Source: Ideonella sp. (GTDB taxonomy: Bacteria; Pseudomonadota; Gammaproteobacteria; Burkholderiales; Burkholderiaceae_C). Taken from it: a stretch of DNA of 32,000 nucleotides. A program made the position numbers and the translations under genes. Under the pieces are notes generated by a model, which saw only the letters and a list, made by a program, of their open reading frames with translations, made no database searches and had not been told where the DNA came from. Of the stretch, positions 1,973 through 25,798 are shown piece after piece. Location of the stretch: contig JABTUY010000002.1 in the NCBI GenBank assembly GCA_015075165.1, forward strand, positions 875,868-907,867, written 5' to 3'. Each line of letters begins with the position of its first letter. The first letter of the stretch is position 1.

Positions 1973-1993
1973 GGCCAGCAAAGGGAAGACCGC

Positions 1994-4333
1994 ATGACCC
2001 GCATCGCGCGCCGCGAACAGTTCTCGCCGCAGACCTTTCTGTGGGAGATCGACGCACCCGATGTCGCCGAGGCCGCCGAGGCCGGCCACTTCGTGATGCT
2101 GCGCCTGGACGACGCCGGCGAGCGCATTCCGCTCACCGTGGCCGACTACGACCGCACGCGCGGCACCATCACCGTGGTGGTGCAGTCGCTCGGCCGCACC
2201 ACGCGCGAGATGCGCGACAACTACCGCGAGGGCGACGAGTTCGCCGATTTCGTCGGCCCGCTCGGCCTGCCGCAGCACATCGACAAGGTGGGCCACGTCG
2301 TGCTGGTGGGCGGCGGGCTCGGTGTGGCGCCGGTGTTCCCGCAGCTGCGCGCGTTCAAGCAGGCCGGCAACCGCACCACCTGCATCGTCGGCTTTCGCAG
2401 CGCCGAGCTGGTGTTCTGGGACGACAAGCTGCGCGAGTTCGCCGACGAGCTGATCATCTGCACCGACGACGGCAGCAGCGGCCGCCCCGGGTTCGTCACC
2501 GGCGCGCTGCAGGCGCTGCTCGAGCGCGAGCGGCCCGACCTGGTGGTGGCGATCGGCCCGATGCCGATGATGCAGGCCTGCACCGAGACCACGCGCCCGT
2601 TCGGCGTGCCGACCAAGGTGTCGCTGAACACCATCATGGTCGACGGCACCGGCATGTGCGGCTCGTGCCGCGTCACGGTGGGCGGCGAGGTCAAGTTCGC
2701 CTGCGTCGACGGCCCCGATTTCGACGCGCACCAGATCGACTTCAAGGAGCTGCTGGCGCGGCAGAAGCGCTTCAAGGCGCAGGAGCAGCAGGCCAACGCC
2801 GACCTCGATCACGTGTGCAGCCTCGAAGAGCTGCTGGTCAAGCAGGGCAAGCGCACCTACAAGAAATACTCGGCGCTCGAGCGCACGCAGGTGCCGATGC
2901 CCGAGCGCGAGCCGGCCGAGCGCGCGCAGACCTTCGACGAGGTGAACCTGGGCTACGACTGGGCCGCCGCGCTGCGCGAATCCGAGCGCTGCATCCAGTG
3001 CCTGAAGCCCACCTGCATCGAAGGCTGCCCGGTGCGCATCGACATCCCGCGCTTCATCCGCCACCTGATGCTGCGTGACGTGGAGGGCGCGGTCGACGCC
3101 ATCCACGATTCGAGCCCGTTCCCGTCGGTGTGCGGCCGCGTCTGCCCGCAAGAGAGCCAGTGCGAGGCGCAGTGCGTGCTGGTCAAGGCCAAGATGCAGC
3201 CGGTGGCGATCGGCCGGCTCGAGCGTTTCGTGGGCGACCATGCGGCACAGCGCCCGGTGGCGCCGGTGCAGTTCGAGCGCGACGCCGGGCGCGTGGCGAT
3301 CGTCGGCTCGGGCCCCGGCGGCCTCGCGTGCGCGGCCGACCTGATCAAACTCGGCGTCGAAGTCACCGTGTACGAGGCGCTGCACGTCGTCGGCGGCGTG
3401 CTGCGCTACGGCATCCCGGCGTTCCGCCTGCCGCGCGACATCATCGACCGCGAGGTCAACCGCCTGCGCGACGCCGGCGTGAAGTTCGAGACCAACAAGG
3501 TCATCGGCAAGACGTTCACGATCGACCGGTTGACCGGTGCGATGGGGTTCGACGCCGTGTTCGTCGCCGCCGGCGCCGGCGCGCCGTCGTTCCTCGGCAT
3601 TCCGGGCGAATCGGCCGGCCAGGTCTATTCGGCCAACGAATTCCTGACGCGCGTGAACCTGATGGGCGGCGACCGCTTCCCGTACCGCGACACGCCGGTG
3701 GGCGCCGGCCAGCGCGTGATCGTGATCGGCGCCGGCAACACCGCGATGGACTGCCTGCGCACCGCGCGCCGGCTCGGCGCGGCCGAGGTGCGCTGCGTCT
3801 ACCGCCGCTCCGAGGCCGAGGCACCGGCGCGCGTGGAGGAGCTGCGCCACGCCAAGGAGGAGGGCGTGGTGTTCTCGTTTCTGCATGGGCCGTCGGCCGT
3901 GCTGCTCGACGACGCCGGCGACGTGCGCGGCCTGCGCGCGCAGCGCATGACGCTCGGCGAGCCCGACGCGCGTGGCCGCCGCTCGCCGGTGCCGGTGGAG
4001 GGCGACTTCGTCGAGTGGCCGTGCGACACCGTGATCTACGCGCTCGGCACCAAGGCCAACCCGATCGTCGGCCGCTCCACGCCGGGCCTGGCGCTCGACC
4101 GCCGCGGCTACATCGCGGCCGACGACACCACGCAGGCCACGTCGCTGCGCGGCGTGTTTGCCGGCGGCGACATCGTGACCGGCGGCGCCACCGTGATCCT
4201 GGCGATGGCCGCCGGCCGCCGCGCCGCGCGCGCGATCGGCGCCTGGCTGCACGGCGGTCGCGCCGACTGGCCGCCGTCGCCCGAGCAGGTGACGGCGTTC
4301 GAACCGCCGCAGCCGACCATCGTTGCGCCATGA
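1994..4333 (+). CDS. Fused NfnA-like (FAD/[2Fe-2S], PyrK-type) plus NfnB/GltD-like (2x[4Fe-4S], FAD, NAD(P)H) oxidoreductase, 779 aa
   Basis: It starts at ATG 1994 with AAGGGAAG upstream. The N-terminal ~280 aa are colinear with NfnA/sulfide dehydrogenase beta (GERIPLTVADYD, GGGLGVAP, IMVDGTGMCGSCRVTVGGEVKFACVDGPDFD). The C-terminal ~470 aa resemble the glutamate synthase small chain/NfnB (CIQCLKPTCIEGCP, CGRVCPQESQCEAQC, VAIVGSGPGGLACA, VIVIGAGNTAMDC). It is a single uninterrupted ORF. Confidence 0.85.
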   Translation: MTRIARREQFSPQTFLWEIDAPDVAEAAEAGHFVMLRLDDAGERIPLTVADYDRTRGTITVVVQSLGRTTREMRDNYREGDEFADFVGPLGLPQHIDKVGHVVLVGGGLGVAPVFPQLRAFKQAGNRTTCIVGFRSAELVFWDDKLREFADELIICTDDGSSGRPGFVTGALQALLERERPDLVVAIGPMPMMQACTETTRPFGVPTKVSLNTIMVDGTGMCGSCRVTVGGEVKFACVDGPDFDAHQIDFKELLARQKRFKAQEQQANADLDHVCSLEELLVKQGKRTYKKYSALERTQVPMPEREPAERAQTFDEVNLGYDWAAALRESERCIQCLKPTCIEGCPVRIDIPRFIRHLMLRDVEGAVDAIHDSSPFPSVCGRVCPQESQCEAQCVLVKAKMQPVAIGRLERFVGDHAAQRPVAPVQFERDAGRVAIVGSGPGGLACAADLIKLGVEVTVYEALHVVGGVLRYGIPAFRLPRDIIDREVNRLRDAGVKFETNKVIGKTFTIDRLTGAMGFDAVFVAAGAGAPSFLGIPGESAGQVYSANEFLTRVNLMGGDRFPYRDTPVGAGQRVIVIGAGNTAMDCLRTARRLGAAEVRCVYRRSEAEAPARVEELRHAKEEGVVFSFLHGPSAVLLDDAGDVRGLRAQRMTLGEPDARGRRSPVPVEGDFVEWPCDTVIYALGTKANPIVGRSTPGLALDRRGYIAADDTTQATSLRGVFAGGDIVTGGATVILAMAAGRRAARAIGAWLHGGRADWPPSPEQVTAFEPPQPTIVAP

Positions 4334-4361
4334 TGGCGCAGCGCCCACGAGGAGCCGCCCG

Positions 4362-6497
4362 ATGATGCTGTGCCCCAAGTGCCACCAGCCGCTGGCCGAC
4401 GAAGACGACGAGCCCTACATCTGCTGTGCCGGCGCGCCGATGCAGTGGCACTGCACCGGTTGCGGCAAGGTCAGCGAGGGCTTCGCGTTTCCGTATGGCC
4501 GCTGCCCGCTGTGCGCCGGTGCGCTCGAGTTGTACGGCGAGCAGCCGGCGATCGCGCACGATGAAGCCGCGTCGCTCGCTGCGGTGCGCACCGCGTTCGA
4601 GATCGAGCTCGGTGGCCGCGCGTTCTATCAGCGCGCCGCGGTGGCCTGCGACGACCCCGAGCTGCGCGCGCTGTTCGGCCGCTTCGCGGTGATGGAAGGC
4701 GAGCACATGGAGACGCTGGCGCGTCGCTATCACCTCGATCTGCCCGATCCGTCGCCGCAGCTCCACCTGGAGACTGCGGCGGTCTATGTCGGCACCGGCG
4801 AGGCGCCGCGCGACGCGGCAGGCTTGTTCAAGGTGGCCATCGGCCTCGAGAAGCGCGCGGTGGCGTTCTTCAGCGAGCGCGCCGGCCGCTGCGCGCCCGG
4901 CTCGGCCGAGCACCGGCTGTATGACGAACTGGCCGCCGAGGAGCGCGAGCACGCCAACATCCTGAGCACCGAGTTCGCGCGCTGGCGCGATCGCATGCCC
5001 GGCCTGTTCGGTGCGGCGCCGCGCCCCGCGTCATCACCCGACGCCGCGCCGCTCAACGCCGCCGAGCTGCTGCTGGCGGGGCACGACGACGACCGCATCG
5101 CGATCGAGTGCGGCGACGAGCGGCTCACCTACGCCGAGCTGCGCGACCGCGTGGCGCGCGCTGCCGCGGTCTGGCGTGCGAAAGGCCTGCGCCCGGGCGA
5201 TCGCGTGGCGGTCAAGCTGCCCGACGGGCTCGACTGGGTCGTCTGCTGGCTCGGCACCATCTGGGCCGGCGGTGTTGCGGTGGGCGTGAACCCGCGCGTG
5301 CCGGCACCCGAGTGGCACTACATCCTCGACGAGGCCGGCTTCAACGTCATCGTCGCCGAGTCCGATGCCGACACGCCCGAGCCGTGGCGCTCGCGCGTGC
5401 ACACGCTGGCCGATGGCCGCCACGCGGTGGCGGCGGCGCAGCCGGTGGCACCGGCGCAGGTCGACCCCGACACGCCAGCGTTCTGGCTGCACACCTCGGG
5501 CACGTCGGGCAAACCGAAGGCGGTGGTGCATGCGCACCGCTGCGTGCGCGAGGTGGGCCGCATCTCGGCCGAGCGCATGGGCATCCGCGCGAGCGACCGG
5601 CTGTACGCCAGCTCGAAGCTGTTCTTCGCCTACCCGCTGACCAACCTGCTGCTGGCCGGCCTGCGCATCGGCGCCACGCTGATCGTCGACCCGCAGTGGC
5701 CAACTCCGGAGTCGGTGGCCACTGCGGTGACCACGCGCCGCCCGAGCGTGCTGTTCAGCGTGCCGTCGCTGTACCGCACGCTGCTGCACGATGGCCGCGC
5801 GCGCGCGATCGCCGAGGCCGGCGTGCGCGTGTGCATCTCCGCTGGCGAGGCGCTGCCGGCCAGCCTGCGCCAGGCCTGGCGCGAGGCCACCGGGTTGCCG
5901 ATGATCGACGGCTACGGCGCCTCCGAGGTGCTGGTGCTGGTGCTCACCGCGGTCGACGGCGACGACGCGCTGTGCCTGTCGCCGGGCACGCAGGCCGAGC
6001 CGCTCGATGCCGCCGCGGCCGCCGCCGGCACGCCAACGCGGCTGTTGATCAGCAGCCCGATGCAGGCGCTGGGCTACCTCGACCGCCCGGCCGCGCAGGC
6101 CGACAGCTTCCGCGACGGGCGCTTCTGCCCGGCCGACCTGTTCGTGCCCACGGCCACCGGTGGCTGGCGCTTCGCCGGCCGCGAGGATTCGATGGTCAAG
6201 GTCAAGGGCCGCTGGGTGAACCTGGTCGATCTCGAGGAGCGCCTCGGCGCCGGCGTGCCCGGCCTGCGCGAGGGCGCAGCGGTGCTGATGCCCGATGCCG
6301 ACGGCATGGGCACGGTGGCGTACTTCTACGCCGCCGGCGCGAGCGATGCGGCGGTGAAGGCCGAACTCGAACGCCGCATCGCCGCGCTGCCGCCGTACCA
6401 GCGCCCGACGCGGCTGCAAGCGATCGACGCGCTGCCACGCACGGCCACCGGCAAGCTGCTGCGGCGCAAGCTGCTGGAGGGGCAAGGGGCGGGGTGA
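4362..6497 (+). CDS. Three-domain protein, 711 aa: N-terminal Cys-rich Zn-ribbon/rubredoxin-like domain, ferritin-like diiron (rubrerythrin-type) domain, and C-terminal benzoate/4-hydroxybenzoate-CoA ligase family adenylate-forming domain
   Basis: It starts at ATG 4362 with GGAG at 4351-4354. Cys motifs are CPKC, CC, CTGC and CPLC. The diiron ligand pattern E...ExxH...E...ExxH is present (EIELGGRAFY, MEGEHMETL, GLEKRAVAFF, AEEREHANIL). The AMP-binding core includes TSGTSGKPKAVVH, SKLFFAYPLTN, DGYGASE and PRTATGKLLRRKL. Pathway context points to 4-hydroxybenzoate-CoA ligase, but substrate specificity is not provable from sequence. Confidence 0.85.
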   Translation: MMLCPKCHQPLADEDDEPYICCAGAPMQWHCTGCGKVSEGFAFPYGRCPLCAGALELYGEQPAIAHDEAASLAAVRTAFEIELGGRAFYQRAAVACDDPELRALFGRFAVMEGEHMETLARRYHLDLPDPSPQLHLETAAVYVGTGEAPRDAAGLFKVAIGLEKRAVAFFSERAGRCAPGSAEHRLYDELAAEEREHANILSTEFARWRDRMPGLFGAAPRPASSPDAAPLNAAELLLAGHDDDRIAIECGDERLTYAELRDRVARAAAVWRAKGLRPGDRVAVKLPDGLDWVVCWLGTIWAGGVAVGVNPRVPAPEWHYILDEAGFNVIVAESDADTPEPWRSRVHTLADGRHAVAAAQPVAPAQVDPDTPAFWLHTSGTSGKPKAVVHAHRCVREVGRISAERMGIRASDRLYASSKLFFAYPLTNLLLAGLRIGATLIVDPQWPTPESVATAVTTRRPSVLFSVPSLYRTLLHDGRARAIAEAGVRVCISAGEALPASLRQAWREATGLPMIDGYGASEVLVLVLTAVDGDDALCLSPGTQAEPLDAAAAAAGTPTRLLISSPMQALGYLDRPAAQADSFRDGRFCPADLFVPTATGGWRFAGREDSMVKVKGRWVNLVDLEERLGAGVPGLREGAAVLMPDADGMGTVAYFYAAGASDAAVKAELERRIAALPPYQRPTRLQAIDALPRTATGKLLRRKLLEGQGAG

Positions 6498-6717: not shown

Positions 6718-6745
6718 TTGCTATGGCTTGGATACACTCTTCGCC

Positions 6746-9710: not shown

Positions 9711-9714
<4 letters not shown>
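9256..9714 (-). CDS. YhbP/UPF0306-like split-barrel FMN-binding protein (pyridoxamine 5'-phosphate oxidase superfamily)
   Basis: Only the C-terminal part of track ORF 9256..11190 is credible. The proposed start is TTG at 9714, overlapping the regulator stop (TTGA). The sequence LLQQHHVMTLATHG...RFPLVGRG...LIDNSLGFGHRDEL resembles E. coli YhbP as I recall it (RFPVAR...FTDNTLGFGKK). Confidence 0.65.
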
Positions 9715-11444
<1,730 letters not shown>

Positions 11445-11502
11445 CGGGCGGCTCCTTCGCAACGCGAGTCAGCGTTGTACGCCGGCGCGGGGTGGTCGGG
11501 AC

Positions 11503-11516
11503 TTGAACGAAATCAA
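11503..11516. promoter_or_regulatory. FNR/CRP-family-like box TTGA-N6-TCAA (TTGAACGAAATCAA)
   Basis: It matches the outer TTGA/TCAA arms of the FNR consensus TTGAT-N4-ATCAA. It is centred about 65 bp upstream of the regulator ATG on the minus strand, within the divergent control region. Confidence 0.3.
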
Positions 11517-11597
11517 GACTCGCGACGACGTGGCCCCGGGGAATACCAGGGGCGCCGCCACGCTGCCCCACCGCCGCGCGCGCGGCCACGGCAACAG

Positions 11598-11609
11598 TTG
11601 ATCAATTGG
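11598..11609. promoter_or_regulatory. Candidate upstream activating sequence for the XylR/DmpR-type activator (TTGATCAATTGG)
   Basis: It is an AT-richer palindromic core (TTGATCAA) in otherwise GC-rich DNA, about 145 bp upstream of the -24 element. It resembles the TTGATCAA-type half-sites I recall for XylR/DmpR UAS. Confidence 0.3.
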
Positions 11610-11745
11610 TGGGCAGCGGCCCTCGGCGCGGCGCGATTTCACCAAATGCGCAAGTGTCGCCGGCGCCGCTGCGCGGCCATCACGCGCCGTGCCAGCCGTG
11701 TCGGCCACGCGCTTCCCAGGTGAACGGGCGCGGGCAGCAGACCCC

Positions 11746-11761
11746 TGGCACGAACCGTGCA
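11746..11761 (+). promoter_or_regulatory. Sigma54 (-24/-12) promoter of the pps-ppc operon
   Basis: The sequence TGGCAC-GAACC-GTGCA has exact GG-N10-GC spacing. It lies about 68 bp upstream of the ppsA ATG, next to a divergent sigma54 activator gene. Confidence 0.7.
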
Positions 11762-11828
11762 ACAGACACCGGGTACGGCCCGGCCGGGCCCGACGATGCC
11801 GACCCCACACACGAACAGGAGACAGGCG

Positions 11829-13664
11829 ATGAAATTTCCGGTTCCGCACGACGTCAAGGCCAAGACCATTCCCGGTACCGAAGGCTGGGAGCGGATGTAT
11901 CCGTACCAGTATCAATTCGTCACCGACGACGCGGTGCGCAACCAGTACGAGAAGGAGACGTTCTGGTTCTACGACGGGCTGCACTACCCCGAGCCGCTGT
12001 ACCCGTTCGACACCATCTGGGACGAGGCCTGGTACCTCGCGCTGAGCCAGTACAACAACCGCATCTTCATGGTCCCGCCGGTGCGCGGCGTCGACCACCG
12101 CGTGATCAACGGCTACGTCTACATCTCGCCGGTGCCGGTGAAGGACGGCAACGAGATCGGCTCGCGGGTGCCGCACTTCATGGAGCGCGCCGGCCACTAC
12201 TACAAGAACTGGGACGCGCTCGAGGCCAAGTGGAAGGTCAAGATGGAAGCGACCATCCGCGAACTCGAGGCGCTGAAGATCCCGCCGCTGCCCGAGATGG
12301 AAGACAGCCGCGTCGTCACCGAAGCGCTCGGCGAGTCCACCGGCTTTCATCTGCTGAAGGCCTACGACGACCTGATCAACCTCGGCATCAAGTGCTGGCA
12401 GTACCACTTCGAGTTCCTGAACCTGGGCTATGCGGCCTACGTGTTCTTCCTCGACTTCGTGCAGAAGCAGTTCCCGAGCATCCCGGCGCAGCGGGTGACG
12501 CAGATGATCTCGGGCATCGACGTGATCATGTACCAGCCCGACGAGGAGCTGAAGAAGCTCGCGGCGAAGGCGATCGAGCTCGGCGTCGGCGATCTGGTGA
12601 AGTCCAGCCCCGAGTGGGCCAAGGTCGAGGCGTCGCTCAAGGCCGATGGCAAGGGCCGCGAGTGGCTCAGCGCACTGAGCCTGGCCAAGGAGCCGTGGTT
12701 CAACGTCTCCACCGGCACCGGCTGGTTCCACCACGACCGCTCGTGGAACGATCAGATGAACGTGCCGCTGCTCGGCATCCAGACCTACATCGACAAGATC
12801 CGCGCCGGCGTGTCGATCGAGCGGCCGACCGCGAAGGTGCGCGCCGAGCGCGACCGCATCACCGCCGAGTACCGCGACCTGATCACCAACGAGGCCGACC
12901 GCAAGCAGTTCGACGAGCTGCTCGGCTGCGCGAAGACGGTGTTCCCGTACGTCGAGAACCACCTGTTCTACGTGGAGCACTGGTTCCACTCGGTGTTCTG
13001 GAACAAGATGCGCGAGGTGGCGGCGATCCTGAAGACGCACGGCGTGATCGCCGACGTCGAAGACGTCTGGCTGCTGCGCCGCGACGAGATCAAGCAGGCG
13101 CTGTGGGACGTGGTCACCGCCTGGGCCACCGGCGTGACGCCGCGCGGCACCAAGACCTGGCCGCCCGAGATCGAATGGCGCAAGGGCGTGATGGCCAAGT
13201 TCAAGGCCTGGGCGCCGCCGCCGGCGATCGGCACCGCGCCCGAGGTGATCCAGGAGCCGTTCACCATCGTGCTGTGGGGCGTGACGAACAAGTCGCTGGC
13301 CGACTGGGCCGCGGTGCAGGAAGTCGGCGACCCCGACAAGATCTCCGAGCTCAAGGGCTTTGCCGGCAGCCCCGGCATCGTCGAGGGCAAGGCGCGCGTG
13401 TGCCGCACGGTGGCCGAGGTGGGCGAGCTGAAGGAGGGCGAGATCCTGGTCGCGCCCACCACCTCGCCGTCGTGGGCACCGGCGTTCGCCAAGATCGGCG
13501 CCTGCGTCACCGACGTCGGCGGCGTGATGAGCCATGCCGCGATCGTCTGCCGCGAGTACGGCATGCCGGCGGTGGTGGGTACCGGCCACGCCACCAAGGT
13601 GATCAAGAGCGGCATGATGCTGCGCGTCGACGGCTCGACGGGCGCGGTGAGCATCGCGCGCTGA
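11829..13664 (+). CDS. ppsA: Phenylphosphate synthase protein 1 (PEP-synthase-like central/phosphohistidine swivel part), 611 aa, about 70 kDa
   Basis: It starts at ATG 11829 with AGGAG 7 nt upstream, in the frame of track ORF 11757..13664. The PEP-utilising mobile domain carries the phosphohistidine motif GGVMSHAAIVCREYGMPAVVG. Size and order (70, 40 and 24 kDa proteins) match the described Thauera system. Confidence 0.9.
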   Translation: MKFPVPHDVKAKTIPGTEGWERMYPYQYQFVTDDAVRNQYEKETFWFYDGLHYPEPLYPFDTIWDEAWYLALSQYNNRIFMVPPVRGVDHRVINGYVYISPVPVKDGNEIGSRVPHFMERAGHYYKNWDALEAKWKVKMEATIRELEALKIPPLPEMEDSRVVTEALGESTGFHLLKAYDDLINLGIKCWQYHFEFLNLGYAAYVFFLDFVQKQFPSIPAQRVTQMISGIDVIMYQPDEELKKLAAKAIELGVGDLVKSSPEWAKVEASLKADGKGREWLSALSLAKEPWFNVSTGTGWFHHDRSWNDQMNVPLLGIQTYIDKIRAGVSIERPTAKVRAERDRITAEYRDLITNEADRKQFDELLGCAKTVFPYVENHLFYVEHWFHSVFWNKMREVAAILKTHGVIADVEDVWLLRRDEIKQALWDVVTAWATGVTPRGTKTWPPEIEWRKGVMAKFKAWAPPPAIGTAPEVIQEPFTIVLWGVTNKSLADWAAVQEVGDPDKISELKGFAGSPGIVEGKARVCRTVAEVGELKEGEILVAPTTSPSWAPAFAKIGACVTDVGGVMSHAAIVCREYGMPAVVGTGHATKVIKSGMMLRVDGSTGAVSIAR

Positions 13665-13666
13665 TC

Positions 13667-14788
13667 ATGCTGGCGGCCGTGCAGTCGACACCGCAGCGCG
13701 CGGCGCCCGGCGCCGCGCCCACCGTGCGCTGGTTCGAGGACTGCGACAAGTCCTCGTTGCCCGAGGTGGGCGGCAAGTGCGCCTCGCTCGGCGAGCTGAT
13801 CCACGCCCAGGTGCGCGTGCCGCCGGGCTTCGCCGTCACCACGCACGGCTGTACGCGCTTCCTGCGCGAGGCCGGCATCCTGCCGGAGATCGCCGGCCTG
13901 CTGCAGGGCCTGCCGCACGACGACATCGTGCGGCTGGAGCAGGCGTCGGCGGCGATCCGCCAGATGATCGAATCGCGCCCGATGGCCATCGAGCTCGAAG
14001 ACGAGATCGCCGAGGCCTACCGGCGCCTCGCGCTGCGCTGCGGCCTGCCGGCCGCGCCGGTGGCGGTGCGCTCCAGCGCCACCGCCGAAGACCTGCCCGG
14101 CGCCAGCTTCGCGGGCCAGCAGGACACCTTCCTGTGGATCCGCGGCGCCGACGAGCTGCTGCACCACGTGCGGCGCTGCATCTCGAGCCTGTACACCGCG
14201 CGCGCCATCGGCTACCGGCAGAAGATGGGCTTCGATCATGCGCAGGTGGCGATCAGCGTCGGCGTGCAGAAGATGGCCAACGCGTTCACCGCCGGCGTGA
14301 TGTTCACCGTGCACCCGGCCAACGGCGACCGCTCGGTGATCGTGATCGACTCCAACTTCGGCTTCGGCGAGTCGGTGGTGTCGGGCGAGGTCACGCCGGA
14401 TCACTTCGTCGTCAACAAGGTGACGCTCGACATCACCGAGCGCACCATCTCGCGCAAGGAGCGCTGCTACACGGTCGACCTCAAGTCGCAGTGCAGCCGC
14501 GCGATCGACGTGCCGCTCGAGCGCCAGACCGTGCAGTCGCTGATCGACGACGAGATCTGCGAGCTGGCCTGGATGGGCAAGCAGATCGAGAAGCACTACG
14601 GCTGCCCGATGGACATCGAGTGGGCGGTCGACAAGGACGTGCCCTCGGGCGGCAACATCTTCATCCTGCAGGCGCGCCCCGAGACGGTGTGGAGCGCGAA
14701 GGCCAAGGCGGCCAGCGCGGCCCCGGCCGAAACCTCGGCGATGAACTACATCGTGTCGGGCCTGCTGTCGGGCCGCAGGCTCGGCTGA
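13667..14788 (+). CDS. ppsB: Phenylphosphate synthase protein 2 (PEP-synthase N-terminal ATP-grasp/nucleotide-binding part), 373 aa
   Basis: It starts at ATG 13667, 2 nt after the ppsA stop, in the frame of track ORF 11606..14788. PPDK_N-type motifs are present (VGGKCASLGEL, VAVRSSATAEDLPGASFAGQQDT, MDIEWAVD). Confidence 0.9.
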   Translation: MLAAVQSTPQRAAPGAAPTVRWFEDCDKSSLPEVGGKCASLGELIHAQVRVPPGFAVTTHGCTRFLREAGILPEIAGLLQGLPHDDIVRLEQASAAIRQMIESRPMAIELEDEIAEAYRRLALRCGLPAAPVAVRSSATAEDLPGASFAGQQDTFLWIRGADELLHHVRRCISSLYTARAIGYRQKMGFDHAQVAISVGVQKMANAFTAGVMFTVHPANGDRSVIVIDSNFGFGESVVSGEVTPDHFVVNKVTLDITERTISRKERCYTVDLKSQCSRAIDVPLERQTVQSLIDDEICELAWMGKQIEKHYGCPMDIEWAVDKDVPSGGNIFILQARPETVWSAKAKAASAAPAETSAMNYIVSGLLSGRRLG

Positions 14789-14810
14789 CCACGAACAAGG
14801 AGACCGCTGC

Positions 14811-15485
14811 GTGATCGTGCGCAACTGGATGAAGCCGACACCGACCACGGTAACCGGCGACACGCTGCTCAGCGAGGCCAACCAGATCTTCGCCGACAGC
14901 AACTTGCATGGACTGCCGGTGGTCGAGGGCGGCCGGCTGCGCGGGCTGATCACGCGCGCCAACTGCCTGCGCGCGGCGCACCACGTGGCGCGCACGCAGA
15001 GCCCCGACGAGTTCGCCTACTTCTCGAGCCGGCTGCGCGTGCGCGACCTGATGGTGCGCAACCCGGCCACTGTCGACGCCGACGAGACGATGGAGGCCTG
15101 CCTGCAAAAAGGCCAGGAGCTGCGCATCGGCCAGTTCCCGGTGATGAGCCAGGGCGCGGTGGTCGGCATGATCTCGGCCAACGAGGTGTTCGCGATGGCG
15201 GCGCACTTCCTCGGCGCGTTCGAGCGCCGCAGCGGCGTCACGCTGGCGCCGATGGCGCTGGTGCCGGGCGCGATCGGCCGCGTCACCGATGTCGTCGAGG
15301 CCAGCGGCGCCGAAGTGGTGGCGATCTACCCGATCGGCTCGGGCCGCACGCCATCGCCACTGAAGAAGCTGGTCGTGCGCTTTCACGGCGGCTGTGCGCG
15401 CACGGTGAGCGAAGCGCTCGAGCGCGCCGGCTACGCGGTGATCGAGTCGGTCGAAGACGCGCACGCCGTCGCCCGCGCGGCCTGA
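14811..15485 (+). CDS. ppsC: Phenylphosphate synthase stimulating protein 3 (tandem CBS domains plus ACT-like tail), 224 aa
   Basis: It starts at GTG 14811 with AAGGAG 8 nt upstream. Two CBS repeats are visible (VRNWMKPTPTTV...GLPVVEGGRLRGLIT and VRDLMVRNPATV...FPVMSQGAVVGMIS). The 24 kDa size matches protein 3. Confidence 0.85.
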   Translation: MIVRNWMKPTPTTVTGDTLLSEANQIFADSNLHGLPVVEGGRLRGLITRANCLRAAHHVARTQSPDEFAYFSSRLRVRDLMVRNPATVDADETMEACLQKGQELRIGQFPVMSQGAVVGMISANEVFAMAAHFLGAFERRSGVTLAPMALVPGAIGRVTDVVEASGAEVVAIYPIGSGRTPSPLKKLVVRFHGGCARTVSEALERAGYAVIESVEDAHAVARAA

Positions 15486-15535
15486 AGCGACCACCCACCG
15501 CCACAACCGTCGAACCCCAACAGGAGCACCCGCAG

Positions 15536-16954
15536 ATGGACCTTCGCAGCTACATCGATCAATGCGCACACGCCGGCGAACTCAAGCGCGTGTCGGCGCC
15601 GGTCGACTGGAACCTGGAAATCTCGCACATCTCCAAGCTGGTCGAGGAGCGCAAGGGCCCGGCACTGCTGTTCGAGAACGTCAAAGGCTACTCGACGCCG
15701 GTGTTCACCGGTGCGTTCGCCACCACCAAGCGGCTGGCGATCATGCTCGGGCTGCCGCACGGCAACACGCTGTGCGAGTCGGCGCAGGCGTGGATGAAGA
15801 AGACGATCACCGCCGAAGGCCTGATCAAGGCCAAGCAGGTCAACGACGGCCCGGTGCTCGAGAACGTGTTCGAGGGCGACAAGGTCAATCTCGAGATGTT
15901 CCCGGTGCCGCGCTTCTTTCCGCTCGACGGCGGGCGCTACATCGGCACCACGGTGTTCGTCGTGCTCAAAGACCCCGAGACCGGCGAGACGAACCTCGGC
16001 ACCTATCGCATGCAGATGCTCGACCACAAGAGCTGCGGCGTGCAGATCCTGCCGGGCAAGCGCGGCGAGCGCATCATGAAGAAGTACGCCAAGCTGGGCA
16101 AGAAGATGCCCGCCGCGGCGGTGATCGGCTGCGACCCGCTGCTGTTCATGGCCGGCACGCTGATGCACAAGGGCGCCAGCGACTTCGACATCACCGGCAC
16201 CGTGCGCGGCCAGCAGGCCGAGTACCTGATGGCGCCGCTCACCGGCCTGCCGGTGCCCGCGGGCGCCGAGATCGTGCTCGAGGGCGAGATCGACCCCACG
16301 GCGTTTCGCCCCGAAGGGCCGTTCGCCGAGTACACCGGCTACTACACCGACGAGCTGCACAAGCCGATTCCGAAGCCGGTGCTCGAGGTCAAGCAGATCC
16401 TGCACCGCAACCAGCCCATCCTGTGGGCCACCGGCCAGGGCCGCCCGGTCACCGACGTGCACATGCTGCTGTCGTTCACGCGCACGGCCACGCTGTGGAC
16501 CGAGCTCGAGAAGATGAAGATCCCGGGCATCCACAACGTCTGCGTGCTGCCTGAGTCGGCCGGCCGCTTCTGGGCCGTGGTGTCGGTCAAGCAGGCCTAC
16601 CCGGGCCACTCGCGCCAGGTGGCCGATGCGGTGATCGGCAGCAACACCGGCAGCTACGGCATCAAGGGCGTGATCACGGTCGACGAGGACATCGCCGCCG
16701 ACGACCTGCAGCGCGTGGTGTGGGCGCTGTCGTGCCGCTACGACCCGATGCGCGGCACCGAGCTGATCAAGCGCGGCCGTTCGACGCCGCTCGACCCCGC
16801 ACTCGACCCCAACGGCGACAAGCTGACCACGTCGCGCATCCTGATGGACGCCTGCATCCCCTACGAGTGGAAGCAAAAACCCGTCGAGTCGCGGCTCGAC
16901 GACGAGACGCTCGCGCGACTGCGCGGCCGCTGGGCCGAGTTCGGCCTCGATTGA
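15536..16954 (+). CDS. ppcB: Phenylphosphate carboxylase UbiD-family subunit, 472 aa (probably beta)
   Basis: UbiD-family motifs are present (NLGTYRMQ, EGPFAEYTGYY). It follows ppsC directly. The alpha/beta assignment is by size only (472 aa versus 484 aa). Confidence 0.85.
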   Translation: MDLRSYIDQCAHAGELKRVSAPVDWNLEISHISKLVEERKGPALLFENVKGYSTPVFTGAFATTKRLAIMLGLPHGNTLCESAQAWMKKTITAEGLIKAKQVNDGPVLENVFEGDKVNLEMFPVPRFFPLDGGRYIGTTVFVVLKDPETGETNLGTYRMQMLDHKSCGVQILPGKRGERIMKKYAKLGKKMPAAAVIGCDPLLFMAGTLMHKGASDFDITGTVRGQQAEYLMAPLTGLPVPAGAEIVLEGEIDPTAFRPEGPFAEYTGYYTDELHKPIPKPVLEVKQILHRNQPILWATGQGRPVTDVHMLLSFTRTATLWTELEKMKIPGIHNVCVLPESAGRFWAVVSVKQAYPGHSRQVADAVIGSNTGSYGIKGVITVDEDIAADDLQRVVWALSCRYDPMRGTELIKRGRSTPLDPALDPNGDKLTTSRILMDACIPYEWKQKPVESRLDDETLARLRGRWAEFGLD

Positions 16955-16961
16955 GCAAACC

Positions 16962-17510
16962 ATGAACGACAAGACCGAACGCGCCGGGCGCACACGCTTC
17001 GCCGAGCTGAGCAAACTGCTGTCCAGCCTGCCGTGCCCCGAGACGCTGCTGTGCGTGCGCGCCGGCGAAGTCACCGACGTCGCCGCGGTGACCACGATGT
17101 GGGTGTCGTACGACCCGGTGATCGTCGCCGTCTACCTGCGCCCGGGCATCCGCACGCACAAGCTGGTCAACGAGGGGCGGCAGTTCACGCTCAACGTCGT
17201 CGACGAGGCGCAAAACCCGCAGGCGCTGCTGGCCGGCTCGCTCAAGGGCGACGACCCCGACAAGCTGAAGAAGCTGGCGCTGCAGTTCGAGCCCGCGGCG
17301 TCGATCGACAGCCCGCGCGTGAGCGGCGCGGCGGCGAGCTACGAATGCCGCGTGCTGAAGGTGGCCGCGTGCGGCGACCACGACCTGTTCCTCGGTCTCG
17401 TCACCGGTTGGAACGTGCGCGACGGCGGCAAGCCGGTGGTGCGCTGGGGCGGACACAGCCACGCCATCGGGGCGACGCTCGAAGCCCCCGCCGTCAAGTA
17501 CCCACATTAG
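16962..17510 (+). CDS. Flavin reductase-like (Flavin_Reduct split-barrel) domain protein, 182 aa
   Basis: It starts at ATG 16962. The family pattern is AAVTTMWVSYDPVIVAVYL...GRQFTLNVV...SPRVSGAAASYECRVLKVAACGDHDLFLGLV, which compares with HpaC-type reductases (...PP.v.v....F.vNvl....P.l.ga.a.leC.....GDH.lf.g.V). Confidence 0.75.
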   Translation: MNDKTERAGRTRFAELSKLLSSLPCPETLLCVRAGEVTDVAAVTTMWVSYDPVIVAVYLRPGIRTHKLVNEGRQFTLNVVDEAQNPQALLAGSLKGDDPDKLKKLALQFEPAASIDSPRVSGAAASYECRVLKVAACGDHDLFLGLVTGWNVRDGGKPVVRWGGHSHAIGATLEAPAVKYPH

Positions 17511-17553
17511 GTCCGGCGGTCACGATCGATTGTCAAGACTCTAGGAGAGGCGG

Positions 17554-18063
17554 ATGGACAAGGCCAAGAACGTGAAGCTGGTGATCCTCGACGTCGACGG
17601 CGTGATGACCGACGGCCGCATCGTCATCGACGACAACGGCGTCGAGCAGCGCAATTTCGACATCAAGGACGGCCTGGGCGTCGTCGCGCTGCAGATGTGC
17701 GGTGTCGACGTGGCGATCATCACGTCGAAGAAGTCGGGCTCGGTGCGCCACCGCGCCGAAGAGCTGAAGATCAAGCGCTTCCACGAGGGCATCAAGAAGA
17801 AGACCGAGCCCTACGAGCAGATGCTCGCCGAGATGGGCATCGGCGATGCGCAGGTGGCCTATGTCGGCGACGACCTGGTCGACCTCTCGTTGATGAAGCG
17901 CGTGGGCTTTCCGGTCGCGGTGGCCGATGCAGTGCCCGAGGTGCGCGCCGCCGCCGCCTACGTGACACAGGCACGCGGCGGCCACGGTGCCGTGCGCGAG
18001 GCCGCCGAGGCGATTCTCAAGGCACAGGGCAAGTGGGACGCCATCCTGGCCAAGATCGGCTGA
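17554..18063 (+). CDS. ppcD: Phenylphosphate carboxylase delta subunit (KdsC-like HAD phosphatase), 169 aa, about 18 kDa
   Basis: It starts at ATG 17554 with AGGAGAGG upstream. HAD motif I is present (LVILDVDGVMTDG), and similarity to KdsC runs throughout (YVGDDLVDLSLMKRVGFPVAVADA, GGHGAVREAAEAIL). Confidence 0.85.
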   Translation: MDKAKNVKLVILDVDGVMTDGRIVIDDNGVEQRNFDIKDGLGVVALQMCGVDVAIITSKKSGSVRHRAEELKIKRFHEGIKKKTEPYEQMLAEMGIGDAQVAYVGDDLVDLSLMKRVGFPVAVADAVPEVRAAAAYVTQARGGHGAVREAAEAILKAQGKWDAILAKIG

Positions 18064-18095
18064 ATCTCTCATCCAACCAACAGGAGCACACGCAA

Positions 18096-19550: not shown

Positions 19551-19567
19551 AGCGAAAGGCATTCACG

Positions 19568-19822
19568 ATGAGCCAATGGGAAGTGTTCGTCACCGACCTC
19601 GCCGAGCTGGCCGAGGGGCGCGACCTGGAGCTGACGATCCGCACGCTCGAGCCGGGTATCCACAAATACACCTACAAGCGCGCCAAGGTGCGTGTCTCGG
19701 CCAAGACCGATGCGCTGCCCGACGGTCTGCAGGTGCGCTTCGGCCGTGGCCAGCTGGCGCCGCAGCGCTACTCGCTCAAGCTGCTCGAGGAGGTCGATCG
19801 CCTGCCGCCCAAGTACCGCTGA
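19568..19822 (+). CDS. ppcC: Small (84 aa, about 10 kDa) protein, candidate phenylphosphate carboxylase gamma subunit
   Basis: It starts at ATG 19568, at the tail of track ORF 18431..19822. Its size and position immediately after the large subunit match the described 10 kDa gamma subunit. I recognise no independent motif. Confidence 0.65.
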   Translation: MSQWEVFVTDLAELAEGRDLELTIRTLEPGIHKYTYKRAKVRVSAKTDALPDGLQVRFGRGQLAPQRYSLKLLEEVDRLPPKYR

Positions 19823-19843
19823 ACGCGACAGGGAGTGCTCGAC

Positions 19844-21193: not shown

Positions 21194-21252
21194 CATGATG
21201 GCGTGAGGTGCCGGGGCAGCCGGCAGGTCTGACGGTCAACAAGAGGGTGACG

Positions 21253-21840
21253 ATGCGACTCGTGGTCGGAATGTCCGGTGCCAGCGGCGCCATCTATGGC
21301 GTGCGCATCCTCGAGGTGCTGAAGCAGCTGCAAGTCGAGACGCACCTGGTGATGTCCGACTCGGCCAAGCGCACCATCGTCTACGAAACCGATCGCAGCA
21401 TCGACGAGGTGAAGGCGCTCGCCAACCACGTGCACGAGCTGGCCGACGTCGGCGCCTGCATCTCCAGCGGCTCGTTCAAGCACGACGGCATGGTGATCGC
21501 GCCGTGCTCGATCAAGACGCTGTCGGCGCTGGCGCATTCGTTCAACACCAACCTGCTGATCCGCGCCGCCGACGTCACGCTCAAAGAGCGCCGCAAGCTC
21601 GTGTTGATGGTGCGCGAGACGCCGCTGCACCTGGGGCACCTGCGGCTGATGACGCAGGTCACCGAGACCGGCGCCGTACTGGTGCCACCGCTGCCGGCGT
21701 TCTACCACCGGCCGAAGACGCTCGACGACATCATCAACCAGTCGGTCAACAAGGCGCTCGACCAGTTCGGCGTCGATTGCAGCCTGTTCAAGCGCTGGAC
21801 CGGCAACGAAGAGCGCGAGCATGCCCGCTCGCGCGCCTGA
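21253..21840 (+). CDS. ubiX: Flavin prenyltransferase UbiX (prFMN synthase), 195 aa
   Basis: It starts at ATG 21253. The canonical UbiX/Pad1 N-terminus is present (MRLVVGMSGASGAIYGVRILEVL), along with MVIAPCSIKTLSA, LVLMVRETPLH and PAFYHRPKT. Confidence 0.9.
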   Translation: MRLVVGMSGASGAIYGVRILEVLKQLQVETHLVMSDSAKRTIVYETDRSIDEVKALANHVHELADVGACISSGSFKHDGMVIAPCSIKTLSALAHSFNTNLLIRAADVTLKERRKLVLMVRETPLHLGHLRLMTQVTETGAVLVPPLPAFYHRPKTLDDIINQSVNKALDQFGVDCSLFKRWTGNEEREHARSRA

Positions 21841-25749: not shown

Positions 25750-25798
25750 TCTCGCGCCGACTTCCCATTCGATGACGACCGAACTGAGGGCCAACGCC

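Follow-up and report, generated by a model that had tools for sequence, protein, structure and literature searches.

Rubrerythrin (D. vulgaris Rbr, PDB 1B71/1RYT) and its clostridial counterpart, reverse rubrerythrin, are diiron peroxidases that also carry a rubredoxin-like Fe(Cys)4 domain, in which the cysteines of Rbr are spaced CxxC-x12-CxxC. The benzoate-type CoA ligases BadA of R. palustris (4EAT) and 2V7B of B. xenovorans, as well as HbdA and the TIGR02262 enzymes, align with residues ~240-706 of the protein described here and have all ANL core motifs, but unlike that protein they carry no N-terminal extension. A third related system is AadN (RPA0678) of R. palustris, a fused "pattern B" NfnAB homolog that genetics has shown to be needed when benzoate or 4-hydroxybenzoate is used for anaerobic growth (Lewis, Sarne & Fixen 2023, PMC9973337).

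The window analyzed here is a stretch of 32,000 nucleotides of Ideonella sp. DNA, in which an AadN-type gene lies beside 4-hydroxybenzoyl-CoA reductase genes, as aadN does in R. palustris. In R. palustris the Nfn protein carries at its C-terminus a module with a Cys-rich region and a ferritin-like bundle, to which the ligase for 4-hydroxybenzoate is not fused, whereas in the window the Nfn protein stops before the module and the module is joined to the ligase.

A module-ligase fusion downstream of hcrAB and an Nfn gene

The reading of hcrAB and an Nfn-like gene upstream of the fusion, given in an earlier note on this DNA, was confirmed by matches to TIGR03194, TIGR03195 and PRK12775. The features of the upstream genes and of the fusion are as follows.

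3-1001, + strand: HcrA, 4-hydroxybenzoyl-CoA reductase alpha, C-terminal part (TIGR03194 504 bits, partial)
~1004-1972, + strand: HcrB, 4-hydroxybenzoyl-CoA reductase beta (TIGR03195 461 bits, cut-off 404)
1994..4333, + strand: AadN-type fused NfnA-NfnB-like core, 779 aa (NF009413/PRK12775 positions 1-775, 1395 bits)
4350..4354, + strand: Shine-Dalgarno AGGAG, 7 nt 5' of ATG 4362, read from the sequence
4362..6497, + strand: module-ligase fusion CDS, complete, 711 aa, continuous ORF with stop codon 6495-6497
4362..4532, + strand: Cys-rich region, residues 1-57 (CxxC-x13-CC and CxxC-x13-CxxC)
4578..4994, + strand: ferritin-like four-helix bundle, residues 73-211 (Pfam Rubrerythrin, AF2, Foldseek, invariant ligands)
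codon 4605-4607, + strand: putative diiron ligand E82 (EIELGG)
codon 4695-4697, + strand: putative diiron ligand E112 (MEGEH)
codon 4704-4706, + strand: putative diiron ligand H115 (MEGEH)
codon 4848-4850, + strand: putative diiron ligand E163 (LEKRA)
codon 4941-4943, + strand: putative diiron ligand E194 (EEREH)
codon 4950-4952, + strand: putative diiron ligand H197 (EEREH)
4995..5057, + strand: variable Pro/Ala/Ser linker, residues 212-232, containing the internal ATG 4995
5058..6494, + strand: benzoate/hydroxybenzoate-type aryl-CoA ligase domain, residues 233-711 (PF00501, NCBIfam and PDB matches)

HcrB aligns with Thauera 1RM6 chain B (442 bits), and its Cys-containing [4Fe-4S] insertion loop is aligned, identical and thus intact. 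The Nfn core matches the NfnI small subunit (5jca_S, 316 bits, residues 2-262) and NfnB (4ylf_B, 481 bits, residues 298-759) in the PDB and is without its usual C-terminal module; its stop codon TGA 4331-4333 lies 28 nt before the fusion ATG 4362, and the module is in another frame.

The fusion frame, open from TTG 4323 or the ATG-ATG at 4362 to 6497, is free of stop codons, and the three parts without an intervening stop that had been read from this DNA are found in 114 full-length orthologs as well. At 70% GC an open frame is by itself no proof of coding, and a 1213-aa antisense ORF is present as well. The frame 4362-6497 is nevertheless coding, on the evidence of GC at codon positions 1/2/3 (0.74/0.55/0.91), the orthologs, the conservation of ligands, dN/dS and a deposited protein with exactly the same 711-aa sequence (NCBI MCC7456455.1).

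The full-length orthologs (n = 114, 690-740 aa, 62-94% identity, Burkholderiales) share the same layout, with the 8 Cys 97-100% and the 6 diiron-type ligands 99-100% conserved. All 14 putative metal ligands are kept in 85/85 modules, of which 51 are ligase-fused, 19 stand-alone and 15 Nfn-fused; in a smaller set the 8 Cys and six ligands were invariant in 25/25 modules. Module dN/dS ranges from 0.07 to 0.45, similar to the ligase domain, being 0.07-0.09 for the most closely related pairs that have Nfn next to them and 0.15-0.27 where that gene is no longer adjacent. With 114 orthologs, ligands retained and dN/dS < 1, the module-ligase architecture is genuine, and purifying selection acts on its conserved parts.

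A separate assembly carries an identical C-terminal 500 aa as a protein starting at ATG 4995 (NCBI MBE7417909.1), and it could be argued that only this ligase is made, the upstream 633 nt being a decaying, frameshifted remnant of a PRK12775-type Nfn gene. That record annotates precisely the product expected, and the Nfn core and the module do lie in different frames, as in a frameshifted gene. However, residue 212, encoded by ATG 4995, is Met in only 5/115 orthologs (K in 59, R in 29), the module has dN/dS far under 1 with every ligand intact, and a good Shine-Dalgarno motif and ATG precede the module, whereas none was seen 5' of ATG 4995 on inspection of the sequence. Moreover, the second NCBI record gives the full 711 aa and JGI labels the fusion orthologs "acyl-CoA synthetase/rubrerythrin". 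Conservation already contradicts such an artefact, which we regard as extremely improbable; the orthologs and the Shine-Dalgarno motif favour the 711-aa product over the internal start that the earlier note had offered for comparison, and the 500-aa call from ATG 4995 should read 711 aa.

The linker (~20 aa) varies in length, has a mean identity to the window of 0.33 among orthologs and is modelled by AF2 with pLDDT < 60, which points to a flexible segment. Stand-alone modules end at the linker position with "...GKPGLL".

Beyond the linker, an intact benzoate-type adenylating enzyme was recognized by Pfam AMP-binding (PF00501; 203.6 bits, cut-off 29.9, residues 243-573) and by its core motifs, in agreement with the first reading, while AMP-binding_C scores slightly under its cut-off (20.1 vs. 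24.5 bits). For the ANL motif criteria, namely a P-loop-like T/SSGTTGxPK, a GRxDD/SxxKxxG hinge and a PxxxxGK with the catalytic Lys, the translation contains TSGTSGKPK, GREDSMVKVKGRWV and PRTATGK, and the ANL core adenylation motifs HTSGTSGKPKAV, AGREDSMVKVKGRWV and PRTATGKLLRR occupy invariant or nearly invariant columns in 59 orthologs. Specific models score under their cut-offs (TIGR02262, 264.6 bits against 375.25; HbdA NF053567, 303.4 against 1000) and the best PDB match is BadA 4EAT/4RLF with 194 bits. By these similarities the ligase is a divergent branch of the benzoate-CoA ligase family and not an equivalog of a characterised enzyme. The earlier note knew of no characterised CoA ligase with such an architecture, and our literature search found no paper describing a CoA ligase with an N-terminal Cys-rich/diiron module.

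With hcr and phenol-carboxylation genes as neighbours, the fusion occupies the place of a 4-hydroxybenzoate-CoA ligase. The genes for conversion of phenol to 4-hydroxybenzoate, which form the context of the fusion (9711..21840, NCBIfam and Pfam matches), are as follows.

9711-11468, - strand: MobR/V4R sigma-54 regulator
11757-13664: ppsA-like gene
~13.7-14.79 kb: ppsB-like gene, PPDK_N
14811-15485: CBS protein
15536-16954: ppcB
16845-17510: flavin-reductase-like gene
17545-18063: ppcD
~18072-19550: UbiD-type ppcA-like gene
~19575-19822: ppcC gamma
19835-21193: UbiD
21208-21840: UbiX

In one other locus (L085) an orthologous fusion ligase is followed by the same phenol gene set. The suggested 4-hydroxybenzoate-activating role thus fits a locus with hcrAB, ppsABC-like and ppcABCD-like genes, and from this genomic context the ligase domain is probably a 4-hydroxybenzoate-CoA ligase.

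The Cys-rich region and the ferritin-like bundle

The Cys-rich segment of ~55 aa described earlier was recovered with Cys at residues 4, 7, 21, 22, 31, 34, 48 and 51 (CPKC..CC..CTGC..CPLC). These probably form two Cys4 knuckle metal sites, rubredoxin- or Zn-ribbon-like, for Zn or Fe. The AF2 model shows beta-hairpins in this region (pLDDT 53-77), and the best Pfam hint, RUBY_RBDX, reaches 16.3 bits, under the cut-off of 26.5. The spacing CxxC-x13-CxxC of C31, C34, C48 and C51 resembles that of Rbr, and the region aligns weakly with residues 151-178 of rubrerythrin 1B71 (E=0.13).

The Pfam Rubrerythrin profile (PF02915, cut-off 22.8) is matched with 24.0 bits by the full protein and 28.2 bits by the module alone, so that the N-terminal region does match a ferritin-like profile, although marginally above the cut-off and mainly over residues 76-123. 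AF2 places four helices at residues 66-95, 99-123, 152-176 and 182-209 (pLDDT 85-93); together with the invariance of E82, E112/H115, E163 and E194/H197 this upholds the six-ligand E/ExxH/E/ExxH pattern on a four-helix bundle that had been deduced from the letters. The best Foldseek matches of the module model are 2oh3 and bacterioferritins, all weak (best E 2.8e-3), and a PDB profile search with the module returned 2fzf (E=5e-10) and 2oh3 (E=3e-6), both uncharacterised COG1633 ferritin-like proteins, and no rubrerythrin bundle below E=0.1.

The likeness to reverse rubrerythrins drawn in the earlier note therefore stands in part: there is a Cys-rich region ahead of the bundle, but the module is not close kin of the characterised rubrerythrins (1B71, E=0.13). 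It shares with rubrerythrin and reverse rubrerythrin the four-helix bundle, the E/ExxH/E/ExxH ligands and a CxxC...CxxC domain, with reverse rubrerythrin also the N-terminal placement of that domain. It differs from rubrerythrin in having eight conserved Cys instead of four, and its electron donor would be an Nfn-type flavoprotein, whereas that of rubrerythrin is rubredoxin/NROR. Since the similarity to characterised rubrerythrins is marginal, peroxidase chemistry is ascribed to the module by analogy only; a literature search for biochemistry of the module in any architecture found none.

The module as a probable accessory domain of AadN-type Nfn

Residues 3-215 of the fusion align to positions 798-1005 of the 1006 positions of NF009413/PRK12775 (272-276 bits, E=8e-81); the threshold for a full-length PRK12775 protein is 1895, and here, with the parts spread over two genes, the core by itself reaches 1395 and the module 276. 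The module had been taken for a feature of the ligase, but by this match and by the loci described below it is instead the accessory module that fused Nfn oxidoreductases of the AadN/PRK12775 type normally have, which makes the Nfn-like gene its primary partner. The earlier note had treated this gene as a mere neighbour.

Elsewhere the module is found at the C-terminus of Nfn or as a separate protein of 211 aa, and here as the N-terminus of a ligase. In loci without hcr genes or ligase, stand-alone modules lie directly 3' of a 779-805-aa Nfn gene (L003, L004, L046, L048, L055, L056, L063, L065, L068, L072, L074, L079, L084, L086 and L087), and Nfn-module single proteins are found in Anaeromyxobacter, Telmatospirillum, Magnetospirillum and R. 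palustris. Clustering of neighbouring ORFs recovered Nfn with the module in 30/30 loci without hcr genes or ligase and no other universal neighbour at those 30 loci, and the module follows or is fused to Nfn in all non-ligase loci with readable upstream sequence. Among the ligase-fusion loci, Nfn lies directly upstream in 33/50.

The R. palustris TIE-1 genome encodes a 994-aa protein at the aadN position, five genes after hbaBCD-hbaR. The Nfn core of the window is 70% identical to this protein over 770 aa, and residues 786-987 of the TIE-1 protein are 56% identical to the window's module (E=1e-70). The identification of this protein (P0508) as AadN rests on locus position, on Table 4 of the AadN paper (PMC9973337) and on reconstructed residue numbering. 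The words ferritin and rubrerythrin are absent from the text of that paper, which makes no mention of the module (PMC9973337).

Because the module here makes up the N-terminal part of the protein encoded next in the operon, the AadN holoenzyme appears in the window to be split into an Nfn core (1994-4333) and a module-linker-ligase protein. We consider it reasonably likely that the N-terminus of the fusion serves an AadN-type oxidoreductase as a metal-binding accessory domain, which docks on Nfn, performs rubrerythrin-like chemistry and tethers the 4-hydroxybenzoate ligase.

In the module tree the ligase fusion is essentially monophyletic, the single clear stand-alone case inside the fused clade is that of R. 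monticola (L074), and at least two independent fusions have joined the module to its neighbour on the opposite side. If a single stop codon between neighbours was lost, this might have produced a fusion in which module and ligase are functionally uncoupled and form no complex, since a fusion that arose essentially once could owe its wide distribution to inheritance and not to repeated selection, and fusions of operon neighbours may be selectively neutral. The join is a simple end-to-start one ("...KPGLL", a short low-complexity linker and the ligase N-terminus "NAAxLLL") and the linker is unconserved. On the other hand, the fusion persists to ~62% identity, survives rearrangements of the locus (loss of Nfn, loss of hcr, relocation beside phenol genes) and has that single clear stand-alone case nested within its clade, while the independent fusions to the other-side gene fit a domain working in a complex. 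We therefore regard a neutral origin as rather unlikely, though by no means negligible.

Nfn is not directly upstream in 16/50 ligase-fusion loci, so docking on Nfn is not readable there from gene order, and the module is intact and constrained in them. Furthermore, one MAG (REEB370) combines an hcrAB-fusion locus (L033) with a second locus that has Nfn and a stand-alone module (L079), a hint that the fused module might serve a function specific to the ligase or to hcr. The earlier note had suggested that the module could gate or locally protect the pathway, and either is conceivable. In the gating version the module would be a sensor, the redox state or metal occupancy of the module switching the CoA ligase on only when the O2-sensitive reductase is usable. 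The constraint on the module in fusions without adjacent Nfn and hcr (L007, L011, L013, L020, L085) and the apparently non-redundant copies in the MAG agree with this. Yet a ligase is absent from the setting of the module that is both ancestral and most widespread, the long, variable linker with its low model confidence gives no sign of a fixed regulatory interface, and we know of no ANL ligase with redox, O2 or iron-sensor regulation of such a type. A sensor role thus seems decidedly unlikely.

Proposed coupling of ligase and electron supply

In the accessory-domain reading we infer that the module binds metal, docks on the Nfn core and exchanges electrons with it, reduces peroxide or O2 and tethers the ligase, and that 4-hydroxybenzoate is the substrate. 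According to it, the ligase domain would convert 4-hydroxybenzoate, formed from phenol through the pps/ppc genes of the same cluster, to 4-hydroxybenzoyl-CoA, which HcrABC would dehydroxylate with low-potential electrons entering via the [4Fe-4S] loop of HcrB. The Nfn core would draw on NAD(P)H to provide the reducing power for HcrABC, and the module would dock on this core, as it may when fused to or co-encoded with it, so that electrons could be exchanged between both. Its chemistry, by analogy, would most likely be rubrerythrin-like, with electrons passing from Fe(Cys)4 to the diiron site and on to H2O2 or O2; the module could then scavenge oxidants near an O2-sensitive low-potential chain in facultative bacteria. 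To our knowledge, all named hosts of the module belong to facultative or microaerophilic groups. Being covalently joined to the ligase through a flexible linker, the module would also keep the activating enzyme beside the electron-supply and reductase machinery. That the usual partner domain of Nfn is here carried by the ligase suggests that substrate activation and electron supply are physically linked in the anaerobic breakdown of phenol and 4-hydroxybenzoate.

The Nfn+module unit lies beside nifV/nifW/IscA-like genes in Rhodospirillales and beside PFOR and a 4Fe-4S protein in a betaproteobacterial group, and these nif-like and PFOR contexts are also O2-sensitive users of low-potential electrons. 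No classical 2[4Fe-4S] ferredoxin motif was seen in the whole 32-kb window, and this, together with the intact HcrB loop, was counted in favour of a need for a low-potential donor. It is possible to argue from the same observations that the module itself replaces ferredoxin, as a dedicated carrier that accepts low-potential electrons from Nfn and passes them to the [4Fe-4S] cluster of HcrB, serving nitrogenase or PFOR partners elsewhere, the more so as the module always accompanies Nfn in the readable loci without ligase and all contexts of the unit involve ferredoxin-dependent enzymes. Fusion to the ligase would then build an assembly line of ligase, carrier and reductase. However, the potentials of rubredoxin-type Fe(Cys)4 and carboxylate-bridged diiron sites are hundreds of mV too positive to reduce a cluster at ~-465 mV, and in R. 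palustris the ferredoxin BadB is considered the partner of AadN. In addition, a gene for a small 4Fe-4S protein is present at some of the loci with PFOR, so that a normal ferredoxin can coexist with the module. Such a carrier role is unlikely in our judgement.

Two further proposals extend the accessory-domain reading. It is improbable, but conceivable, that the module is a docking and electron-transfer hub that nucleates a supercomplex of ligase, Nfn and HcrABC, in which 4-hydroxybenzoyl-CoA and low-potential electrons arrive jointly at the reductase. The boldest form of this idea makes the diiron site a possible high-potential outlet of flavin-based bifurcation, with trace O2 or H2O2 driving the other electron to ferredoxin-level potential; if true, this would explain why this Nfn subtype occurs in facultative bacteria beside genes for aryl-CoA reductase, PFOR and nitrogenase-related proteins.

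Among the fused Nfn enzymes, a physiological role has been proposed for AadN alone, namely to supply electrons when aromatic compounds are degraded anaerobically; AadN can also be evolved to provide electrons to nitrogenase. Enzymes of its type have a strictly conserved but overlooked 8-Cys and diiron-type domain, to which no role was found assigned in the literature searched. The occurrence of this domain either on Nfn or, in a large Burkholderiales clade, on a 4-hydroxybenzoate-type CoA ligase is a Rosetta-stone pattern that predicts physical coupling of substrate activation with electron supply in reductive dehydroxylation. The domain may also be one means by which facultative bacteria protect an electron chain of very low potential from oxygen, or poise it against oxygen.

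The module-ligase fusion and its reading frame

The fusion ligase encoded at 4362-6497 is real and conserved. As the earlier note had described, a single stop-free frame carries three parts: in the translation of the window it is open from TTG 4323 or ATG-ATG 4362 up to the stop at 6495-6497, encodes 711 aa when counted from ATG 4362, and comprises the following segments.

Residues 1-57: Cys-rich segment with CPKC, CC, CTGC and CPLC
Residues ~73-211: helical-bundle segment with EIELGG, MEGEH, LEKRA and EEREH
Residues ~233-711: adenylate-forming ligase segment (Pfam AMP-binding, 203.6 bits; AMP-binding_C present), with the motifs TSGTSGKPK, GREDSMVKVKGRWV and PRTATGK in the translation

Among 5.8 billion proteins searched, more than 110 are full-length fusions (690-740 aa, 62-94% identity), mostly from Rubrivivax, Ideonella, Ramlibacter and other Burkholderiales, many of them named 'acyl-CoA synthetase/rubrerythrin' by JGI. 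Across 114 orthologs aligned with the window protein, conservation is 97-100% at the eight Cys and 99-100% at the six putative diiron ligands. In this alignment the mean identity to the window protein stands at 0.71 in the Cys region, 0.65 in the bundle and 0.69 in the ligase, and only 0.22 and 0.33 in the two linkers; the module-ligase linker has a pLDDT below 60 at residues 210-232.

The DNA of the window has 70% G+C, and the opposite strand carries a long open frame:

737-4378, minus strand: antisense ORF of 1213 aa, rich in Arg, Ala and Gly, running opposite hcrB, Nfn and the 5' end of the fusion gene

This ORF has no homologs in its own right and was dismissed as a high-GC artefact. An open frame alone is therefore little evidence in such DNA, and coding status was tested independently. 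The GC content per codon position of the fusion (0.74/0.55/0.91) follows the pattern of coding DNA in this genome, and dN/dS in the module is 0.07-0.45 (Nei-Gojobori), similar to the ligase domain. An AGGAG lies 7 nt 5' of ATG 4362, and inspection of the sequence revealed no comparable Shine-Dalgarno 5' of the internal ATG 4995. Residue 212, encoded by the latter, is Met in 5 of 115 sequences (K in 59, R in 29), so ATG 4995 is no conserved alternative start; with no Shine-Dalgarno and a module under purifying selection, initiation there was rejected.

The exact 711-aa sequence is present at NCBI as MCC7456455.1, from a 54.7-kb contig of a MAG labelled 'Nitrospira sp.', a label that probably stems from faulty binning, given DNA of 70% GC and relatives that all belong to the Burkholderiales. 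The entry MBE7417909.1 (Ideonella sp. MAG, 1.03-Mb contig) annotates the last 500 aa only, which is an annotation error. The converse explanation, that the fusion itself is an annotation artefact, is effectively excluded by the conservation data. The apparent 1500-aa Nfn-module-ligase ORFs in two other module-bearing loci (L015, L022) were rejected as chance frames of high-GC DNA, with the Nfn match in another frame.

Nature and affiliation of the module

The Pfam Rubrerythrin profile matches the module at 24-28 bits, just above the threshold of 22.8. An AF2 model built from 25 sequences yielded the four-helix bundle, with long helices at 66-95, 99-123, 152-176 and 182-209 (pLDDT 85-93) and the Cys region as a beta-hairpin of lower confidence than the helices. 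Foldseek against the PDB returned ferritin-like bundles, headed by 2oh3 (COG1633; E=2.8e-3), with bacterioferritins and Dps-like proteins ranking next. Profile searching of PDB sequences likewise gave the uncharacterised ferritin-like proteins 2fzf (5e-10) and 2oh3 (3e-6), and rubrerythrin 1B71/1RYT only at E=0.13, in an alignment confined to its rubredoxin-like segment and module residues 22-50. For the Cys region, the nearest Pfam candidate was the rubrerythrin rubredoxin-like domain, which at 16 bits stays below threshold. The likeness to reverse rubrerythrins proposed in the earlier note holds for the domain order, with a Cys-metal domain first and a diiron-type bundle second, and for the complete ligand set, but the module differs from rubrerythrins in that it falls in a distinct, uncharacterised branch of the ferritin-like superfamily.

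A second rubrerythrin-family ORF is present in the window:

25619-26287, plus strand: rubrerythrin-family ORF (PF02915, 36 bits) amid enoyl-CoA hydratase and acyl-CoA dehydrogenase genes

It encodes a 2oh3-like COG1633 protein and was rejected as a paralogue of the module, with which it shares marginal local similarity only (BLASTP E=0.007). In another module-bearing locus (L002), ECH and SDR genes precede an analogous ferritin-like gene of 165 aa at 11708-12205.

The earlier note described the module as a part fused to a CoA ligase; the domain belongs to the Nfn-like enzyme. Fusion residues 3-215 align with positions 798-1005 of NF009413/PRK12775 (NCBIfam, E=8e-81), a model of 1006 residues for a 'trifunctional ... 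glutamate synthase subunit beta/ferritin domain' protein, and the gene directly upstream spans positions 1-775 of the same model:

1994-4333: Nfn gene, 779 aa, fused NfnA-NfnB; residues 2-262 match the NfnI small subunit (316 bits), residues 298-759 T. maritima NfnB (481 bits)

Searches with the module only retrieved mostly ~211-aa stand-alone proteins, together with fragments carrying a GltD-like N-terminal part. A profile search over 1.84 billion cluster representatives delimited a compact family (72 representatives at E<=1e-30) with three architectures, namely stand-alone, C-terminal on Nfn proteins of ~975-998 aa, and N-terminal on ligases of ~700 aa. The module occurs in at least 475 genomes in a scan of one genome per species, from which the 80 best loci and four others were classified. 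Fifty are module-ligase fusions, all Burkholderiales-like; the Nfn gene lies directly upstream in 33 of these, usually in the order hcrA-hcrB-Nfn-fusion, hcrA-hcrB without Nfn directly upstream in 11, and neither within 6 kb in five, the last one being without upstream sequence. Fifteen loci encode single Nfn-module proteins (Anaeromyxobacter group, Telmatospirillum), and the remainder encode stand-alone modules, all directly after a 779-805-aa Nfn gene where the upstream region is readable, and without hcr genes or a ligase. Clustering of flanking ORFs recovered Nfn plus module in 30/30 non-ligase loci and no universal third neighbour among them, only lineage-specific ones (PFOR, nifV/IscA-like).

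The module is also found in R. palustris. AadN (RPA0678), a fused Nfn homolog whose gene lies beside the hba genes, is needed for anaerobic growth of R. palustris on benzoate and 4-hydroxybenzoate and has been proposed as the ferredoxin reductant for benzoyl-CoA reductase (Lewis, Sarne and Fixen, PMC9973337); the text of that paper names no ferritin or rubrerythrin domain. A search for homologs of an alphaproteobacterial Nfn turned up a 994-aa R. palustris TIE-1 protein, encoded five genes downstream of hbaBCD and a Crp-type regulator, matching the location of RPA0678; its 90%-identity cluster holds proteins of several R. palustris strains. It is 70% identical to the window Nfn core over 770 residues, and its residues 786-987 are 56% identical to the window module (E=1e-70). 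By synteny, the strain table of the paper and a reconstruction of its numbering, this protein is probably AadN; on that footing, the ligase-borne domain in the window is the C-terminal domain of AadN in R. palustris.

The numbering bears on the published suppressor 'C38W', which does not fit the Leu at residue 38 of the 994-aa protein. Starting at an in-frame GTG 41 codons further upstream, the frame encodes 1035 aa and has a TGT codon exactly at position 38, which reconciles the numbering with the TIE-1 sequence:

TIE-1 locus (L088), 9878-10003: upstream extension of the AadN ortholog, with Cys codon TGT at 9989-9991, 4 codons before the conserved MYRIV start

This stretch before the MYRIV start is absent from Burkholderiales orthologs, and C38W may therefore affect a leader or non-conserved extension and not the Nfn core. 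The gap in the window from the HcrB stop to the Nfn ATG measures only 21 nt.

A neighbour-joining tree built from 85 modules places those fused to ligases on one side, with only three 'stand-alone' sequences nested among them (two ended by a contig edge, and L074 from R. monticola), and fusion of module to Nfn arose at least twice. Module and ligase meet in a plain end-to-start join: 'RMPGLF' in the window is the counterpart of the stand-alone C-terminus '...GKPGLL', and after it come ~15-30 variable Pro/Ala/Ser-rich residues and an ordinary ligase N-terminus, 'NAAxLLL'. The MAG REEB370 holds both an hcrAB-fusion locus (L033) and a locus with Nfn and a stand-alone module (L079).

Pathway context and other loci carrying the unit

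Upstream of the fusion lie a partial HcrA, HcrB and the Nfn gene, in agreement with the earlier note. HcrB matches the Thauera enzyme at 442 bits and conserves its Cys-containing [4Fe-4S] insertion loop, the entry point of low-potential electrons in that enzyme. Downstream are a toxin-antitoxin pair, a methyltransferase and a complete phenol-carboxylation set (MobR-like regulator, ppsA-like, ppsB-like (PPDK_N), CBS, ppcB, ppcD, UbiD-type ppcA-like, ppcC, UbiD/UbiX). An orthologous fusion ligase (77% identical) directly adjoins the same phenol genes in L085, without hcr and without Nfn. The ligase domain is nearest to BadA-type benzoate-CoA ligases (194 bits) and does not reach the curated cut-offs of TIGR02262 or HbdA; the context suggests 4-hydroxybenzoate as its obvious substrate. 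Further features of this region are:

6728-7030: MNT-type nucleotidyltransferase of the toxin-antitoxin pair
7027-7383: HepT-like partner of the pair
16845-17510, plus strand: flavin-reductase-like gene (PF01613, 75 bits) between ppcB and ppcD, also found there in L085

A direct repeat of ~150 nt (6566-6717 and 7466-7616; 76-84% identity, spacing ~900 nt) brackets the MNT-type/HepT-like pair, whose insertion point immediately follows the ligase stop codon.

In Ramlibacter tataouinensis (L001; CP116009, 1422483-1444654), the fusion ligase comes immediately after hcrC-A-B, an Nfn gene being absent. Flanking genes of this cluster encode DUF2249, a hemerythrin, an Fnr/Crp regulator, and UbiD, UbiX, SCP2 and two U32 peptidases; the last group looks like an O2-independent ubiquinone pathway, which gives the region the look of an 'anaerobic lifestyle' island. 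In the Rhodospirillales, Defluviicoccus vanus among them (L087 3719-8645, L046, L055, L065), IscA-like and homocitrate-synthase (NifV-like) genes directly precede Nfn and a stand-alone module, joined in L087 by NifW. This nif-type neighbourhood is of note because an AadN variant is able to feed nitrogenase in R. palustris (PMC9973337). In a betaproteobacterial subgroup (L004 5644-13397, L063, L068, L072, L084), a 1208-aa pyruvate:ferredoxin oxidoreductase follows Nfn and module; in L004 it is succeeded by a DHO_dh-like gene, and a small 4Fe-4S protein is encoded in L063, L068 and L084.

Possible role of the module

Our data support the module as a putatively metal-binding domain that works together with AadN-type Nfn enzymes and that, in this lineage, is covalently joined to the ligase by a flexible linker and is still functional on it. 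The 16 fusions with no Nfn gene beside them keep all 14 ligand residues (eight Cys and six of diiron type), and their modules are under purifying selection (dN/dS 0.15-0.27 in the closest pairs). A neutral fusion of neighbouring genes is one rival explanation. Retention of the module in fusions lacking an adjacent Nfn gene would also suit a redox sensor gating the ligase, a reading opposed by the loose linker and by an ancestral context without any ligase. A third possibility, that the module is a carrier replacing ferredoxin, is in keeping with the window, where no CxxCxxCxxxCP motif occurs in any frame and a ferredoxin gene is thus not found, but the potentials expected of the module are too high.

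We favour a redox accessory role, in which electrons from the Nfn core would pass to the Cys4 site(s) and the diiron site for reduction of H2O2 or O2. In favour of this role are the rubrerythrin-like layout and ligands, the facultative or microaerophilic character of the host groups (Burkholderiales, Rhodospirillales, Rhizobiales and Anaeromyxobacter), and the recurrence of Nfn plus module beside other O2-sensitive enzymes that use low-potential electrons, the neighbours being homocitrate synthase, NifW and IscA-like proteins in the Rhodospirillales including D. vanus, and PFOR with a small 4Fe-4S protein in the betaproteobacterial group.

Databases already contain the protein family, with domain annotation from JGI, and the Nfn-ferritin combination is recorded in PRK12775. 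A literature search found no paper on the module, on how it relates to AadN or on its move onto a CoA ligase, and a review of Nfn mentions neither ferritin nor rubrerythrin; nor did the search find a paper on a CoA ligase of this architecture, of which the earlier note likewise knew no characterised example. The fusion is an ANL ligase with the accessory domain of a bifurcating-type oxidoreductase and not a categorically new system. Fusion to Nfn in one set of lineages and to the ligase in another makes it probable that the domain contacts the Nfn core in the window too, and such contact would tether the ligase to the electron-supply machinery.
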